A stretch of 16,062 bases of DNA. It comes from a virus (lineage: Duplodnaviria > Heunggongvirae > Uroviricota > Caudoviricetes). The notes beneath the pieces are model-generated. The model saw nothing but the letters and a program-made list of their open reading frames with translations, made no database searches and was not told the origin of the DNA. The translations under genes were made by a program, and so were the position numbers. The stretch is taken from the IMG/VR virus record IMGVR_UViG_2690316131_000008; one strand, given 5' to 3'. Positions 6,905 to 14,500 of this stretch are shown in pieces (the stretch's first letter is position 1; every line of letters starts with the position of its first letter).

Positions 6905-7546
6905 TCATGCGTTAGTTTCTCCACAACCAGAAGCAATCGACGCCACGACGCCCGGAGCTGCACACTCGCGGGCGTTACTCTTTTCCGGCGCACAAAAAAC
7001 ACGAAATAACAGTGTTAAATGCTCCTGCCACTTCGCCATTACTTGGTAGCTGTTCTCTTCGATTTGCTCACGCTCAGCTTGGTCAATAACTCCATCAGCA
7101 GTTGCCTTGCGTAAGTACTGGGAATGCTTGCCAATCCATTCTATTGACTCCATCAGCCGCTGATTAATGTCACCATTGTCAATGTCATCAATGACCACCA
7201 GCGGCACAAACACCCCATTACTACGACGGGCTATTGCATCCGTTACATGCCTGGTACCACTGGCATCCTGTAAAACCATGGCCCACTCAAGTGGAAAAAT
7301 TTGATCCCCACCGCTACGCAGTCTGTTATGCAATTGATCTTTTGCTGGGGTGATATCATCAGATTTATACAAACCAAGAATTTCTGCTGCTTCCTCATAG
7401 CCATGAGGTAAATCAGCAATCGTTCTTCGTATTGCTGCCACCAGCCATGCTGGTTGCTTATCAACTTTCCATTCAGGTTCTTTACCCACGTTTAAGCCCT
7501 CATATCTGTGGTTTCTGTAAATCGATTTATCCATTAGATTTTTCAT
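6905..7546 (-). CDS. YdaT/CII-like putative regulatory protein
   Basis: Sits directly downstream of the Cro/YdaS-like gene, where lambdoid and Rac-type prophages carry cII or ydaT. Start set at the ATG at 7546 (MKNLMDK...), since the track ORF (to 7603) would overlap cro by 77 nt. Functional assignment is positional. Confidence 0.45.
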
Positions 7547-7727
7547 AAAGCTCAGGTTTAAATGGCAACCGTCCGCAAGTTCTATATGCAGCCTCTGCTG
7601 CACGTCCTTTTGGAATTAACTGGCCAGGACGGTTTCGCCACTGATAAACGGCTTCAGTTGTTATGCCGAAAAAAGCAGCAACTTTCTCAATGCTGCCGAA
7701 GTAGCTTTCGATATCGTCAGTCGTCAT
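7527..7727 (-). CDS. Cro/YdaS-like HTH transcriptional regulator
   Basis: 66-aa protein; [46 protein letters not shown] fits the Cro/YdaS-type HTH pattern. Divergent from the CI-like repressor across a 97-bp operator region. Confidence 0.7.
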   Translation of the reverse strand: MTTDDIESYFGSIEKVAAFFGITTEAVYQWRNRPGQLIPKGRAAEAAYRTCGRLPFKPELYEKSNG

Positions 7728-7738
7728 ATGCCCTCCAA

Positions 7739-7803
7739 ACTAAGTTTTATTAGATGTTAATTATCAATCTATCTTAGGTCAATAAAAACTAAGATTACTT
7801 AGT
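7739..7803. promoter_or_regulatory. Divergent promoter/operator region (OR-like) with two 16-bp operator-like sites
   Basis: ACTAAGTTTTATTAGA (7739-7754) and ACTAAGATTACTTAGT (7788-7803) share the pattern ACTAAG-N4-nTTAGn with inverted half-sites, in the 97-bp gap between cro and cI. Confidence 0.5.
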
Positions 7804-7824: not shown

Positions 7825-8451
7825 ATGGAAACGGTTGGTCAGCGTATAAAAGCTCTGAGAAGAGTTACCAGAACGTCCCAGAAAGAATTGGGTAAATTTT
7901 GTGGAGTAAGTGACGTTGCTGTGGGGTACTGGGAGAAAGACATCAATGTCCCTGGTGGGGAAGCACTTTCAAAATTAGCGAAGTTCTTCAATACGTCAAT
8001 AGATTACATTCTTTATGGTGCGGAGTTTGAAGGCAAACTCGTCACAAACATGCGCAGAGTTCCTGTAATCTCGTGGGTTCAGGCTGGGCAGTTTACTGAG
8101 TGCAGGACAGCAGAAGTGTTTAGTGAAGTAGACAAGTGGGTAGATACATCATTAAAGATTGGTGATAACTCATTTGCATTGGAGGTTAAAGGCGACTCCA
8201 TGACTAACCCTAACGGCCTCCCAACAATACCAGAAGGCGCAACAGTGATTGTAGATCCTGATGCAGAACCCCGGCATGGAAAAATAGTCATCGCTAGACT
8301 TGATGGAACAAACGAAGCCACAGTAAAAAAATTAGTTATCGATGGCCCTCAAAAGTTTTTAGTGCCATTAAATCCCCGGTACCCCAACATCCCGATCAAT
8401 GGTAATTGCCTCATCATTGGTGTAGTCAAAGGAGTTCAATACGAACTCTAG
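7825..8451 (+). CDS. CI-like phage repressor (N-terminal HTH, C-terminal S24 LexA-like peptidase)
   Basis: N-terminus QRIKALRRVTRTSQKELGKFCGVSDVAVGYWE is an XRE-type HTH. C-terminus carries GDSM (Ser nucleophile) and VKKL (Lys general base about 40 residues later), as in LexA/lambda CI. Confidence 0.85.
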   Translation: METVGQRIKALRRVTRTSQKELGKFCGVSDVAVGYWEKDINVPGGEALSKLAKFFNTSIDYILYGAEFEGKLVTNMRRVPVISWVQAGQFTECRTAEVFSEVDKWVDTSLKIGDNSFALEVKGDSMTNPNGLPTIPEGATVIVDPDAEPRHGKIVIARLDGTNEATVKKLVIDGPQKFLVPLNPRYPNIPINGNCLIIGVVKGVQYEL

Positions 8452-8470
8452 CCCCCCTTTTCTCTAACCA

Positions 8471-8508
8471 AAACACCGAACTAAGAAAAGTTTGGTGTTT
8501 TCTCTTGC
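8471..8508 (+). terminator. Putative terminator downstream of cI
   Basis: 11-bp stem (8471-8481 / 8490-8500, one G-U pair), 8-nt loop, followed by tctcttg. The U-tract is weak. Confidence 0.35.
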
Positions 8509-8540
8509 CATCAAAACTAAGTTAAGTTAGATTTTATATC
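8505..8540 (+). promoter_or_regulatory. Putative early-left promoter (pL-like) with operator-like site
   Basis: TTGCCA (8505-8510), 17-bp spacer, TAGATT (8528-8533). Overlaps a third copy of the operator motif, ACTAAGTTAAGTTAGA (8516-8531). Confidence 0.3.
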
Positions 8541-8628
8541 AAAGATAACGAACAGGCAGGACGCCCACGAAGTAGCCGACGGTGGCGTATGAATGACCGG
8601 ATGATTCGCAAATGGCAGGAGAGTGAAT

Positions 8629-9021
8629 ATGGATGGCAGTATCGACAACCAACGAGATGCCTGGCTTGTGGTGATTGAAGCAGCAAAAACTGCATTAAGC
8701 CAAGTTGAAAGCAGTAACTACAGAACAGTTAAACAAATGGCTTTGGGCTCTATTATCTATGCCTTTGAAAAGCTGGGCTTTGATTTTGAAGCAACGAGTA
8801 TTCTGTCAGAACAACATGAAAAAATGAATAGAGAAGACGCCGCAGCCTATATCGGCGTAGAAGCGCAAACCTTAGCTAATTGGGCTAGCACAGGAAAAGT
8901 TCGAATACCTTTTTTAAAAATCGGTAGAAAGGTTATTTACCTAAAAAGTGATCTTGAGCCTATCTTGCCTCATCGAAGGCAAATACCACCAAGTAGCTCA
9001 CGTACCTACCACCTCGCCTGA
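8629..9021 (+). CDS. HTH (excisionase/AlpA-type, HTH_17-like) DNA-binding protein
   Basis: C-terminal REDAAAYIGVEAQTLANWASTGKVRIPFLKIGRKVIYLKSDLE fits the excisionase/AlpA-type HTH pattern. ATG at 8629 with AGGAG 7 nt upstream (the track start at 8623 is a GTG). First gene after cI on the plus strand. Confidence 0.5.
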   Translation: MDGSIDNQRDAWLVVIEAAKTALSQVESSNYRTVKQMALGSIIYAFEKLGFDFEATSILSEQHEKMNREDAAAYIGVEAQTLANWASTGKVRIPFLKIGRKVIYLKSDLEPILPHRRQIPPSSSRTYHLA

Positions 9022-9227
9022 TGTGGCTAAAAGCAGGCACATAACAGCTAAGTATTTTCAACCAGAGAGAATCCTTAGCGTTGTGGTGAATGCGCAGGCT
9101 GATGCGCGAAAGACATTGCAGCTATTGCGGAAAAGAGCTGTTCGGCGGGGCAATTAAACGCCCGTGAGAGTCTGAAATAACCGCAAGCCGGAGATCAGCA
9201 CCGGTCACCACAACAGCCACTGCTTTG

Positions 9228-9275
9228 GCGGTACCAGTTTGTACACTTGCTTCCGGCTGGTACCGCTCTTTTTAC
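9228..9275 (+). terminator. Rho-independent terminator upstream of the rdgC-like gene
   Basis: Perfect 10-bp stem gcggtaccag / ctggtaccgc (9228-9237 / 9257-9266) with a 19-nt loop, followed by tcttttta (9267-9274). Confidence 0.5.
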
Positions 9276-9396
9276 AAAACAGAGAAGAGCATCACCGGCC
9301 GACGGGCTCATAACCCAATCCATCCGGGCGGCTGCCACCGCAGGTGTTCTTCTCTGTTTTGTGGAGAAACTAATATCTTGTGCAGAGGAAAATAGA

Positions 9397-10314
9397 ATGA
9401 AATTACCAAAATTTCGTAACGCAATTGTGTACCGAGCAACATTACCTAGTATACAGGCTATTGAAGGTCATCTTCTCGAACTCCCTTATTCTGAAATCGG
9501 GGAAACAGAATTTTCACGGTCCTCTTTTGTAGAGAATCCTGTCACTGGTGAACTGGTAACTCCGATATCTGGTGGGTACGCAATGGTAATCCGTCATGAT
9601 CAGAAAATAATTCCCCGACATGTCGTCATGAAAGAAGCTAATTCTCGAATCCAAACAATCGAAAATATGTCCGGGAATAAATTAAAGCGTGCCGAACGAC
9701 TGGCCATTATTGATAACGTACGAGTAGATCTATGCAAACAGGCATTTGTTAAGTCTACGCTGATTCTTGCATTGTACAGCACTGATGAGAAATTATTGGT
9801 AATCAACACAACCAATAAAATAATAGCCGGTATGGTATGCGCAATGCTGATTAAGGTTGTCGGTTCAGTGAAAACAGAAACAATCAACATCAGTGATATC
9901 AAGAATGGACTGACTACACGCCTGAATAACTACATCAATGGTGCAGCCAATGCATTTGAAGGATTCACTGTCGGAAATTATATTCAGCTATCACGCTACG
10001 CAGATCAAAAGGAAATTATTCGCTACTCAGCTGAGCATGAGTCAATTCAAAGCGAACTGGCCGATAGTCTTAGTAGTAGTTTCACTGCTGATAAAATGGA
10101 GTTATCCGGTTGCGGTGTGACCTTCATTCTTACCGAAAATTTCCATTTTTCGCGCATCAATACTCAATCTCAGACATTTAATGATGAAGATGATAAAGCA
10201 TTCCAGTGGCGTCATCAGACTGGCGCTGACCTTTTCCAATTCAGCAAGGTAGTTAATTTGATGTGTGACCTTCTTTCTTACAAAGAAGATAAAAGCCAAA
10301 ATCCAACAACTTAA
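9397..10314 (+). CDS. RdgC-like recombination-associated protein
   Basis: 305 aa from the ATG at 9397 (GAGGA 7 nt upstream). N-terminus MKLPKFRNAIVYR parallels E. coli RdgC (MLWFKNLMVYR), and length matches (~303 aa). AT-rich. Family call from memory. Confidence 0.5.
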   Translation: MKLPKFRNAIVYRATLPSIQAIEGHLLELPYSEIGETEFSRSSFVENPVTGELVTPISGGYAMVIRHDQKIIPRHVVMKEANSRIQTIENMSGNKLKRAERLAIIDNVRVDLCKQAFVKSTLILALYSTDEKLLVINTTNKIIAGMVCAMLIKVVGSVKTETINISDIKNGLTTRLNNYINGAANAFEGFTVGNYIQLSRYADQKEIIRYSAEHESIQSELADSLSSSFTADKMELSGCGVTFILTENFHFSRINTQSQTFNDEDDKAFQWRHQTGADLFQFSKVVNLMCDLLSYKEDKSQNPTT

Positions 10315-10404
10315 AAAAATTGCAGCAATCATCCCATGTCAAATGGGCTGGATTGCTGCAATCAAAATTCAGAGCGGTGCAGCGCATATAACGTGGAGAA
10401 CAAA

Positions 10405-10941
10405 ATGTCATTTATTAAAACTTTTTCCGGGAAGCATTTTTATTATGACAAGATAAATAAAGACGACATCGTGATTAACGATATCGCGGTTTCCCTTTCA
10501 AATATCTGCCGCTTTGCCGGTCATCTTTCTCACTTCTACAGTGTCGCCCAACATGCGGTGCTTTGCAGCCAGCTGGTGCCGCAGGAATTTGCTTTTGAAG
10601 CGTTAATGCATGATGCAACAGAAGCGTATTGCCAGGATATTCCCGCTCCACTGAAACGCCTTCTTCCTGACTATAAACGGATGGAAGAAAAAATAGACGC
10701 CGTAATCCGTGAGAAATACGGGTTACCCCCGGTTATGAGCACGCCTGTGAAATATGCCGATCTCATCATGCTGGCAACCGAACGCCGCGATCTCGGGCTT
10801 GATGATGGCTCTTTCTGGCCAGTACTGGAAGGTATCCCGGCAACAGAAATGTTCAAAGTTATTCCACTGGCTCCGAGCCATGCCTACGGGATGTTTATGG
10901 AGCGCTTTAACGAGTTATCGGAGTTACGCACATGCGCATGA
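10405..10941 (+). CDS. HD-domain phosphohydrolase (YfbR-like putative 5'-deoxynucleotidase)
   Basis: Motifs AGHLSHFYSVAQHAV ... ALMHDATEAY (His...His-Asp) fit the HD superfamily. Start at the ATG at 10405 (GGAG 6 nt upstream). Confidence 0.65.
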   Translation: MSFIKTFSGKHFYYDKINKDDIVINDIAVSLSNICRFAGHLSHFYSVAQHAVLCSQLVPQEFAFEALMHDATEAYCQDIPAPLKRLLPDYKRMEEKIDAVIREKYGLPPVMSTPVKYADLIMLATERRDLGLDDGSFWPVLEGIPATEMFKVIPLAPSHAYGMFMERFNELSELRTCA

Positions 10942-14281: not shown

Positions 14282-14307
14282 AAAAAACCCGCCTGAAGGC
14301 GGGTTTT
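14282..14307. terminator. Bidirectional Rho-independent terminator between convergent operons
   Basis: A6-cccgcc-tgaa-ggcggg-T4: a 6-bp GC stem with tetraloop, flanked by an A-run on one side and a T-run on the other, so it can terminate both the plus-strand xis transcript and the minus-strand Panacea operon. Confidence 0.65.
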
Positions 14308-14326
14308 CAAAAAGCACCAGCTATGA

Positions 14327-14500
14327 TCATGCTGCTTTGAGACGACGAAGCTTACCCTGCTGCTCTTTACCAGAGACAGTAGCGTGAGTGAACGCATTAG
14401 GAGCAGCCTTCATCAGAACTTCAACAGCAGCACCCATACCTACGAATGCTTTCATTGTGTCGAACTTAACCTGTGGCTTGGTTGCTTTTTGATCTTCCAT
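14327..14500 (-). CDS. Small hypothetical protein (57 aa), possible third gene of the Panacea operon
   Basis: Not in the ORF track (under 60 aa). By hand: MEDQKATKPQVKFDTMKAFVGMGAAVEVLMKAAPNAFTHATVSGKEQQGKLRRLKAA. ATG at 14500 with GGAG ~6 nt upstream, 40 nt after the 139-aa gene stop, ending just before the terminator. Confidence 0.35.
   Translation of the reverse strand: MEDQKATKPQVKFDTMKAFVGMGAAVEVLMKAAPNAFTHATVSGKEQQGKLRRLKAA

Follow-up and report, generated by a model that had tools for sequence, protein, structure and literature searches.

The 375-nt non-coding stretch at positions 9022-9396 of a 16,062-nt piece of prophage DNA (IMG/VR record IMGVR_UViG_2690316131_000008; hereafter the window) is a chain of four conserved RNA structures, which we call modules A, B, C and D, and not a pair of tandem terminators as a first-pass annotation of the sequence had proposed. 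That annotation correctly placed the stretch, which we also call the leader, between two genes: it runs from the stop codon of a helix-turn-helix gene of the HTH_17 type (8623-9021) to the start of an RdgC-family gene at 9397. In the reading that we favour, and to which we assign a probability of roughly 0.5, modules A, B and C would constitute a structured small RNA of the STnc100 type that ends at C, where read-through from the early-left promoter PL would be gated, and module D would head the read-through messenger RNA. Transcription from PL (8505-8533) would cross the helix-turn-helix gene and make the A-B RNA; most polymerases would stop at C, releasing A-B as a stable, structured small RNA and attenuating the early-left operon, and the fraction that reads through would enter D, at the head of the messenger RNA of rdgC and the other early-left genes. 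Within an unchanged closing helix, a member of a much wider phage RNA family would here have taken the place of the usual STnc100 core.

Four conserved structures in the leader

The plus strand of the stretch folds with a free energy of -141.4 kcal/mol (z = -4.9; none of 100 shuffled sequences did as well), and the minus strand folds more weakly (z = -2.65). By BLAST the leader is a mosaic, with boundaries at 9007-9073 (A), 9073-9215 (B), 9206-9373 (C and D together) and 9268-9373 (D by itself). The B segment is 98% identical in phage P1 and others, the C-D segment is matched in cdtI and Stx2c phages, the D segment is 84% identical in Salmonella phage ST64B, and homology always ends near 9373. 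Leader-derived sequence is present in about half of the complete E. coli genomes (2932 of 5426). An Rfam search of the window, at the gathering threshold and at E <= 10, gave nothing real, and no module reaches any family threshold. All modules carry compensatory changes, and the counterpart of A-B-C in phage SfIV, whose different core we call B', aligns to the full 206-position STnc100 model; both observations favour the earlier suggestion that the region encodes a small RNA.

Module A is a plus-strand hairpin at 9047-9079 (GCUAAGUAUUUUC/GAGAAUCCUUAGC), recognised as an inverted repeat and folding at -11.8 kcal/mol (z = -5.2). It is identical in SfIV, where it is aligned within positions 1-40 of the STnc100 model, and corresponds both to the 5' outer part of that model and to a "unit 1" found upstream of B in phage P1, Taipeivirus and T1-like phages. 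The version in phage P1 has a compensatory stem, GGTAAGGG/CCCTTACC.

Module B (9080-9214, plus strand, 135 nt) adopts a closed four-way junction in the minimum free energy fold. Its closing helix (helix P1, not to be confused with phage P1) is a perfect 10-bp inverted repeat, 9080-9089/9205-9214, which encloses a hairpin H1 with the loop GGCUGA (9092-9107), a variable insert forming a long irregular arm (9108-9186) and a hairpin H3 with the loop AGAUCAGCA (9187-9205). Searching IMG/VR independently by the H1 motif and by the H3 motif returned at least 120 loci each. The copies share GAAU-GCGCAGGCUGAUGCGC ... GCCGGAGAUCAGCACCGGCC, their closing helices differ widely, and their inserts range from about 30 to 200 nt, some carrying T-arm-like GGTTCGA motifs. 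The window copy has every family element: closing helix, GAAU-H1, insert, H3-CC and complementary loops. We assessed the structure of the family by motif scans and pair counting. Across 56 diverse cores, 96.6% of cells were paired, a percentage inflated by the pairing required during core extraction, and both sides changed in 15 of 24 pairs, the number of pair types at fixed positions being free of that inflation. None of 500 shuffles reached the observed values, and sliding the partners left only about 30% paired. The loops GCUGA and UCAGC are complementary and, G-U changes apart, invariant, and a kissing contact between H1 and H3 is plausible. In both B and D, G-U pairs fit the plus strand only. 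The family is thus best modelled, from its sequences, as a tRNA-shaped four-way junction with two near-invariant hairpins and a variable arm. Its reach is wide: genomes containing the exact 20-nt H1 motif bear the labels Alpha-, Beta- and Gammaproteobacteria, with some others besides, and B-like BLAST matches come from 284 GenBank phages, among them phages of Escherichia, Klebsiella, Pseudomonas, Burkholderia and Erwinia.

Module C (9227-9273, plus strand), evident both as an inverted repeat and in the fold, is an intrinsic terminator with a 13-bp stem (9227-9239/9255-9267) followed by UCUUUUU. Ten of its pairs are perfect and G-U pairs bring the number to 13 (-21.2 kcal/mol, z = -4.7). The first of the two hairpins proposed earlier, a perfect 10-bp stem with a U-tract, is therefore real, lying at 9228-9237/9257-9266 with its UCUUUUU at 9267-9273. 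With 15-19 nt its loop is unusually long, the only reason why a simple terminator scan missed it. In SfIV the counterpart of C falls on the terminator stem of the STnc100 model; in ST64B the stem is a different, compensatory one (GUCGGCGUC...GACGCCGAC), followed by the same CUUUUUAC tail. Of 136 unique contexts, 130 have a hairpin that closes within 3 nt of a T-run just before D, and the 3' arms of these hairpins take 42 different forms, so that the terminator signature of C is kept in relatives although the stem varies. There is no other strong plus-strand terminator between 10300 and 16062, which would make C the single gate of the early-left operon. The A-B RNA probably has its 3' end at C, where read-through from PL would be controlled. 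An alternative pairing of the 3' arm of C with the 5' arm of D was also considered; it is absent in ST64B and was judged to be due to chance.

Module D (9274-9362, plus strand) is a long helix, 9274-9298/9338-9362, enclosing a three-way junction, as seen both in the single-sequence fold and with RNAalifold. Arm a (9299-9327) has the apex GGG-CUCAUAA-CCC at 9304-9316, and arm b (9328-9341) is a variable hairpin, here GCGG/CCGC (9328-9331/9338-9341). The element 9268-9372 folds at -49.2 kcal/mol (z = -7.25). RNAalifold recovered the long helix, arm a and the variable arm b from 24 diverse copies, with 35 pairs of which 7 are compensatory, for example a C-G to G-C exchange in 11 of the 24 sequences. 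At the apex, 14 contiguous nucleotides (CGGGCTCATAACCC) equal the anticodon arm of the E. coli metZ initiator tRNA (tRNA-fMet), and the arm a apex CGGGCUCAUAACCC has the three G-C pairs and the loop CUCAUAA of that arm. D copies were also retrieved through their 3' tail, which makes the set unbiased towards the apex motif. Among 72 GGG-N7-CCC apices retrieved by the tail, the loop is CUCAUAA in 34, CUCAUUC in 22, UUCAUAA in 7, CCCAUAA in 3 and something else in 6; CAU is kept in 66 of the 72 and CUCAU is the best-kept part of the loop. Several further copies carry CUCAUAA on a GG/CC stem. The conserved tail GGAGAAAC(U/C)AA (9363-9373, plus strand) marks the end of family-wide homology, and in different phages different first genes follow it. 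RNAalifold pairs its GGAGA with the U-tract of C through U-A and U-G pairs that show no covariation. In one further record (L261, ~10400-10520) an anticodon-arm look-alike, GGACGGGCTCATAACCCAATCC, stands in quite different flanks and without the D helix.

These structures bear directly on the idea that two tandem Rho-independent terminators insulate early-left genes with a promoter of their own. Half of the pair holds, the first hairpin being a good terminator. The other half, placed at about 9329-9365, dissolves into the tip and the paired 3' arm of D: its GCGG/CCGC stem has only 4 bp, and its T-rich run (9347-9362) pairs with the A/G-rich segment 9274-9298 inside the 25-bp helix, leaving no free U-tract after the GC stem. 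No promoter-like site was found in 9022-9396, conservation stops at about 9373 without a conserved -35 or -10 box, and the strong conservation of B and D in sequence and structure is not needed for insulation; we therefore regard insulation by tandem terminators as very improbable. A candidate promoter within D was set aside, since its TTTACA at 9271 has no -10 partner.

Even less credence is due to the proposal that the region encodes small proteins. Open reading frames (ORFs) of 47-69 codons are present (9225-9395 and 8948-9157 on the plus strand, 9195-9338 on the minus strand), and similar ones are annotated in mEp460, SfIV and cdtI. However, variation tracks base-pairing and not codons, homologues differ inside the ORFs by insertions of 1-27 nt and by replacement of the whole core, and the annotated ORFs lie on different strands in different records. 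The reference-genome ORFs that overlap the RNA modules (mEp460 gp36, L001 5122-5265; SfIV gp34/gp35, L003 3850-4762; cdtI orf40, L565 1439-1894; and "plp" of phage P1) are probably spurious.

As regards novelty, neither the B family nor D matches a family in Rfam 15. An incomplete full-text search of the literature returned nothing relevant for the H1 and H3 sequences, for "Proteo-phage-1" or for tRNA-like kissing-loop phage RNAs, and the Minerva preprint does not describe the B family. Within the limits of that search, the B core family and module D appear to be undescribed in Rfam 15 and the searchable literature. Some known elements were considered and rejected. The small RNA svsR/co293 (PMC12803456) is located at the 3' end of cI and is a different element, the Pas small RNAs lie near Q and the lysis genes, at another locus, and hammerhead and hepatitis delta virus-like ribozymes, riboswitches, CRISPR-repeat mimics, integron attC sites and retron msr RNAs were dismissed because, judged from the sequence, their defining motifs or partner genes are lacking.

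Exchanged cores within an STnc100-type frame

The link to STnc100 comes from phages in which the frame is the same and the core is not. SfIV and ST64B share with the window module A, the closing helix (GUUGUGGUGAAU...CACCACAAC), C and D, but differ in the core, and the window is collinear with SfIV everywhere except there. Against the Rfam STnc100 model (RF02076), the A-B'-C segment of SfIV aligns over positions 1-206 with 38.4 bits (E = 7e-7; below the gathering score of 47), an alignment that takes in the outer pairs, the closing helix and its GAAU, the final hairpin (CCGGGAGGCACCCGG) and the terminator. By its collinearity with SfIV the window has the same architecture of outer 5' hairpin, closing helix with GAAU, inner hairpins, terminal hairpin and terminator. 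In cdtI the frame holds a third core and lies some 280 nt past a clear PL promoter, whose untranslated leader then contains the same closing helix, C and D. Since the window does not match the STnc100 model, its locus is best described as one of the STnc100 type with a swapped core, and not as a member by the Rfam criterion.

The shared frame can be followed across the three unrelated cores, which are the kissing-hairpin core of the window and phage P1, the STnc100-like core of SfIV and ST64B, and the third core of cdtI. A closing helix GTTGTGGTGAAT...CACCACAAC surrounds each of them (9080-9089/9205-9214 in the window, L003 4072-4195 in SfIV, L565 1396-1509 in cdtI and L005 3008-3146 in phage P1), and along the array of units in phage P1 GTTGTG and CACAAC alternate, which offers each strand two possible partners. 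A shared closing helix with alternating strands looks like a system of cassette exchange or of alternative pairing.

STnc100 itself is a prophage small RNA with about 11 copies in the enterohaemorrhagic E. coli strain EDL933, where it is transcribed and one copy is confirmed by Northern blot (PMC5331693). In Stx2 phages it lies 75 nt downstream of stx2, its role being called unclear (PMC12370729), and it is related to PasD (bioRxiv 10.64898/2026.05.13.724894). STnc100 and the window locus are laid out alike: an outer 5' hairpin comes first, then the closing helix and its GAAU, then several inner hairpins, then one more that borders directly on the 3' strand of the closing helix, and finally the terminator. 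Both stand in untranslated leaders of lambdoid operons. They differ in that the core of the window (H1, insert and H3) is unrelated in sequence and belongs to a family reaching far beyond the Gammaproteobacteria. The two kinds of RNA also meet in one array: after the tRNA-Asn and tRNA-Thr genes of phage P1 we find, at L005 3448-3600 and 3700-3820, a second B copy, with H1 GCACAGGCUGAUGUGC, and an STnc100-like unit (33.9 bits), so that the tRNA operon of this phage holds at least three such RNAs. Our finding thus ties STnc100, a poorly understood small RNA, to a larger set of "cassette" RNAs that share a closing helix and that sit where phages also keep tRNAs, namely in the untranslated PL and PR' leaders and in tRNA arrays.

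The surroundings of B copies elsewhere illustrate this range. The two copies of phage P1 lie just 3' of tRNA-Asn/tRNA-Thr, under an ORF called "plp" in other records; phage D3 has one within its tRNA cluster and on the same strand; and 21 of 125 copies are within ~1 kb of tRNA genes, nearly all of them on the same strand. HK633 carries a copy in the leader that separates PR'/qut from the holin gene, and Taipeivirus one in a gene-free stretch. Six IMG/VR prophages share an operator-flanked promoter (TTGACA-17-TACATT) with B beginning 11 nt after the -10 box, and in the virulent T1-like phage Bas77 a promoter is followed by about 350 nt, by unit 1 with B and by a terminator, the whole unit being antisense to tail genes. 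Over 161 unique contexts, downstream ORFs are co-oriented with B in a ratio of 105:29 and upstream ORFs only in one of 80:62, and a terminator within 250 nt downstream lies on the same strand in 53 of 151 contexts, as against 16 on the opposite strand. Taken together, these contexts and counts indicate that B usually lies early in a transcription unit, often ends the transcript and can be its own gene. In yet another record (L018 3205-3282, minus strand) the Rfam RNA Proteo-phage-1 (RF03044, 76.8 bits) lies ~130 nt upstream of a B copy in the same orientation, which suggests arrays of different structured RNAs.

What the leader RNA may do

A promoter scan finds TTGCCA-17-TAGATT on the plus strand at 8505-8533, directly after the cI-type gene and its terminator-like hairpin; its -10 region is overlapped by an operator, AACTAAGTTAAGTTAGAT (8515-8532), and between cro and cI, at 7738-7755, there is another operator of that type, AACTAAGTTTTATTAGAT. 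Because the operators at both places are of one type, we take 8505-8533 as the probable PL, its activity being inferred from the sequence. It follows that the helix-turn-helix gene would be the first of the PL operon and the 375-nt stretch an untranslated part of its transcript.

That A-B would be released at C as an RNA in its own right is favoured by the B copies that look like separate RNA genes, in the promoter-to-terminator unit of the T1-like phage, in the tRNA arrays of P1 and D3 and in the HK633 leader between PR' and holin. Several points weigh on the other side. The window itself gives no STnc100 match even at E <= 10, so that its link to STnc100 rests on collinearity with SfIV, whose own score is below the Rfam cut-off. 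Efficient terminators do not usually have a loop as long as the 15-19 nt of C. Some two thirds of B copies lack a terminator within 250 nt, and the 105:29 co-orientation of downstream genes would also fit a cis-acting leader element.

The most explicit cis-acting alternative is one that the first-pass annotation had raised, together with a nut-like mechanism: B would be a put-like processive antiterminator, the nascent RNA binding RNA polymerase just after PL and carrying it through C and later signals without a phage protein. B does lie downstream of PL and ahead of the operon's sole strong terminator, in some prophages it starts a few nucleotides past the PL start site as putL does (PMC9378689), its co-orientation with downstream but hardly with upstream genes is that of an operon-start element, it is also present in long stretches that are not translated (tRNA arrays and the PR' leader, for example), and the fact that its hairpins hardly vary across Proteobacteria suggests that a host partner is conserved as well. 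The resemblance to putL and putR of HK022 is that both would be protein-free RNA structures just 3' of PL and before a terminator. The put RNAs, however, are ~70 nt long, form two stem-loops in an open V and occur once per early operon (PMC9378689), whereas the window has one copy, with none in the PR operon, and a closed junction whose insert varies from 30 to 200 nt in the family. Comparison by blastn with HK022 (20-30 kb) gave chance matches only, with no similarity to its PL/nun/cI region, and the hairpin pair of the B family is absent there. Moreover, SfIV and ST64B fill the same slot, ahead of the same C-D, with the unrelated core B', and cdtI fills it with another unrelated one; in the T1-like phage Bas77 a terminator and then genes of the opposite strand come after the RNA, leaving nothing to antiterminate; this stand-alone unit in a virulent phage counts against a nut-like reading as well. 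We consider a put-like role quite unlikely. For the nut-like variant, a search for boxA (YGCUCUUWA) found none in the leader and a single boxA-like match in the window, at 14361, which is at chance level; the first gene after PL encodes an HTH_17 protein, in agreement with the earlier remark that no N-like antiterminator is recognisable. A nut/N mechanism is excluded at the level tested.

A second alternative, unlikely but somewhat better placed, overlaps with the small-RNA reading and does not exclude it. It holds that A, B and D serve as tRNA-like elements for processing or as decoys: tRNA-processing enzymes would excise them from the PL transcript, and as stable mimics they would occupy a tRNA-binding host factor or a defence nuclease, D mimicking the anticodon arm of initiator tRNA. 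The cloverleaf-like layout of B, with its closing helix, two loop-joined arms and variable arm, is in keeping with this, as are the copies that accompany tRNA genes, in the same orientation, in P1 and D3, the 21 of 125 copies within about 1 kb of tRNA genes, the T-arm-like motifs of some inserts and, for D, the 14 nt of the tRNA-fMet anticodon arm with its well-kept CUCAU. VapC-type toxins reportedly cleave initiator tRNA in this very arm, as Winther and Gerdes are said to have described in 2011 for those of Shigella and Salmonella, and SfIV, SfV, SfII and ST64B infect Shigella or Salmonella. Yet ARAGORN finds no tRNA gene and the Rfam tRNA model no match, T-loop, D-loop and CCA end are absent, an elbow in B would have to come from Watson-Crick loop-loop pairing, and the three G-C pairs of D are not universal, some copies having only GG/CC.

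Other known leader RNAs resemble the window in part. A prophage small RNA with a terminator in a lambdoid leader is an already known kind of element. PreS of lambda, for instance, is a small RNA of the PL operon that is made during lytic growth and has a poly-U 3' tail (bioRxiv 10.1101/2024.10.31.621285). It is, however, a simple base-pairing RNA, unlike the closed multi-helix junction here, and lambda is not among the best 60 of the 104 phage records matched by the leader. Module D, for its part, recalls the RNase III hairpin of the lambda N leader, being likewise a long, near-perfect helix of a PL leader directly upstream of the first early-left ribosome-binding site; D adds to this a conserved three-way junction, the anticodon-arm look-alike and the upstream terminator (130 of 136 contexts). 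The lambda hairpin is reportedly the subject of work by Kameyama et al. in 1991 and Wilson et al. in 2002.

Beyond the small-RNA reading itself, we advance a broader view only tentatively, at somewhat less than even odds. B would represent an undescribed and very widespread class of phage RNA whose arms, GCGCAGGCUGAUGCGC and GCCGGAGAUCAGCACCGGC, are near-invariant between phages of Rhizobium, Pseudomonas and E. coli, whose inserts are exchangeable, and which either acts on a universally conserved host machine (RNA polymerase, the ribosome or tRNA-processing enzymes) or is catalytic; D would be a second undescribed element, a terminator-coupled mimic of the initiator-tRNA anticodon arm at the head of early-left operons. 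The breadth of conservation is what leads us to expect a conserved host component as the partner of B and D. Two testable objects emerge, a terminator that would gate int, xis and recombination genes without an N protein, and an initiator-tRNA look-alike.

Prophage setting and neighbouring features

The window corresponds to the immunity and early region of an SfV/mEp460/e14-type lambdoid prophage. Its minus strand carries a P22-Cro-like gene (7527-7727), the Q antiterminator gene (1348-1734) and, between these two, a CII-like gene and replication genes. The plus strand carries the cI-type repressor gene with HTH_3 and Peptidase_S24 domains (7825-8451). Right after the repressor stop, at 8452-8505, lies a terminator-like hairpin, AACACCGAACTAAGAAAAGTTTGGTGTT followed by TTCTCTT, which contains an operator-like half site. 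In a related prophage a published small RNA, svsR (co293-like), maps to the 3' end of cI (PMC12803456).

The helix-turn-helix gene at 8623-9021 (plus strand; Pfam HTH_17, E = 1.9e-6; MerR/excisionase type) is not conserved in relatives and is therefore cargo inserted upstream of the leader: at its position mEp460, SfIV, cdtI and E. coli SCU-482 have other or opposite-strand genes, and their homology with the window begins at about 9007. Its product, which is also AlpA-like, occupies the position of N in lambda. AlpA-type proteins can act as antiterminators in Pseudomonas.

The first early-left gene 3' of the leader (9397-10314, plus strand; Pfam RdgC, E = 5.4e-31) has a homologue in E. coli SCU-482 that is annotated rdgC, and a YfdR-like gene follows it on the plus strand. 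The gene layout of SCU-482 matches and extends to xis and int. E. coli K-12 prophage CPS-53 lacks the leader, and K-12 transcript data are therefore not applicable to it; in its yfdO-yfdP spacer (L336 5248-5604) short tandem repeats (GATTTTGACGGGTCA-like) stand upstream of yfdP instead.

Two further RNA features complete the picture of the region. On the PR side of some relatives (L069 2748-2936 and L006 188-376, both minus strand) a C4 antisense RNA adjoins isrK, and by Rfam search neither RNA is present in the window. Inside the early-left region of the window, a strong minus-strand intrinsic terminator, GAAAACCCGCC TTCA GGCGGGTTTTT with a T-run, lies at 14283-14308 and faces in the opposite direction.

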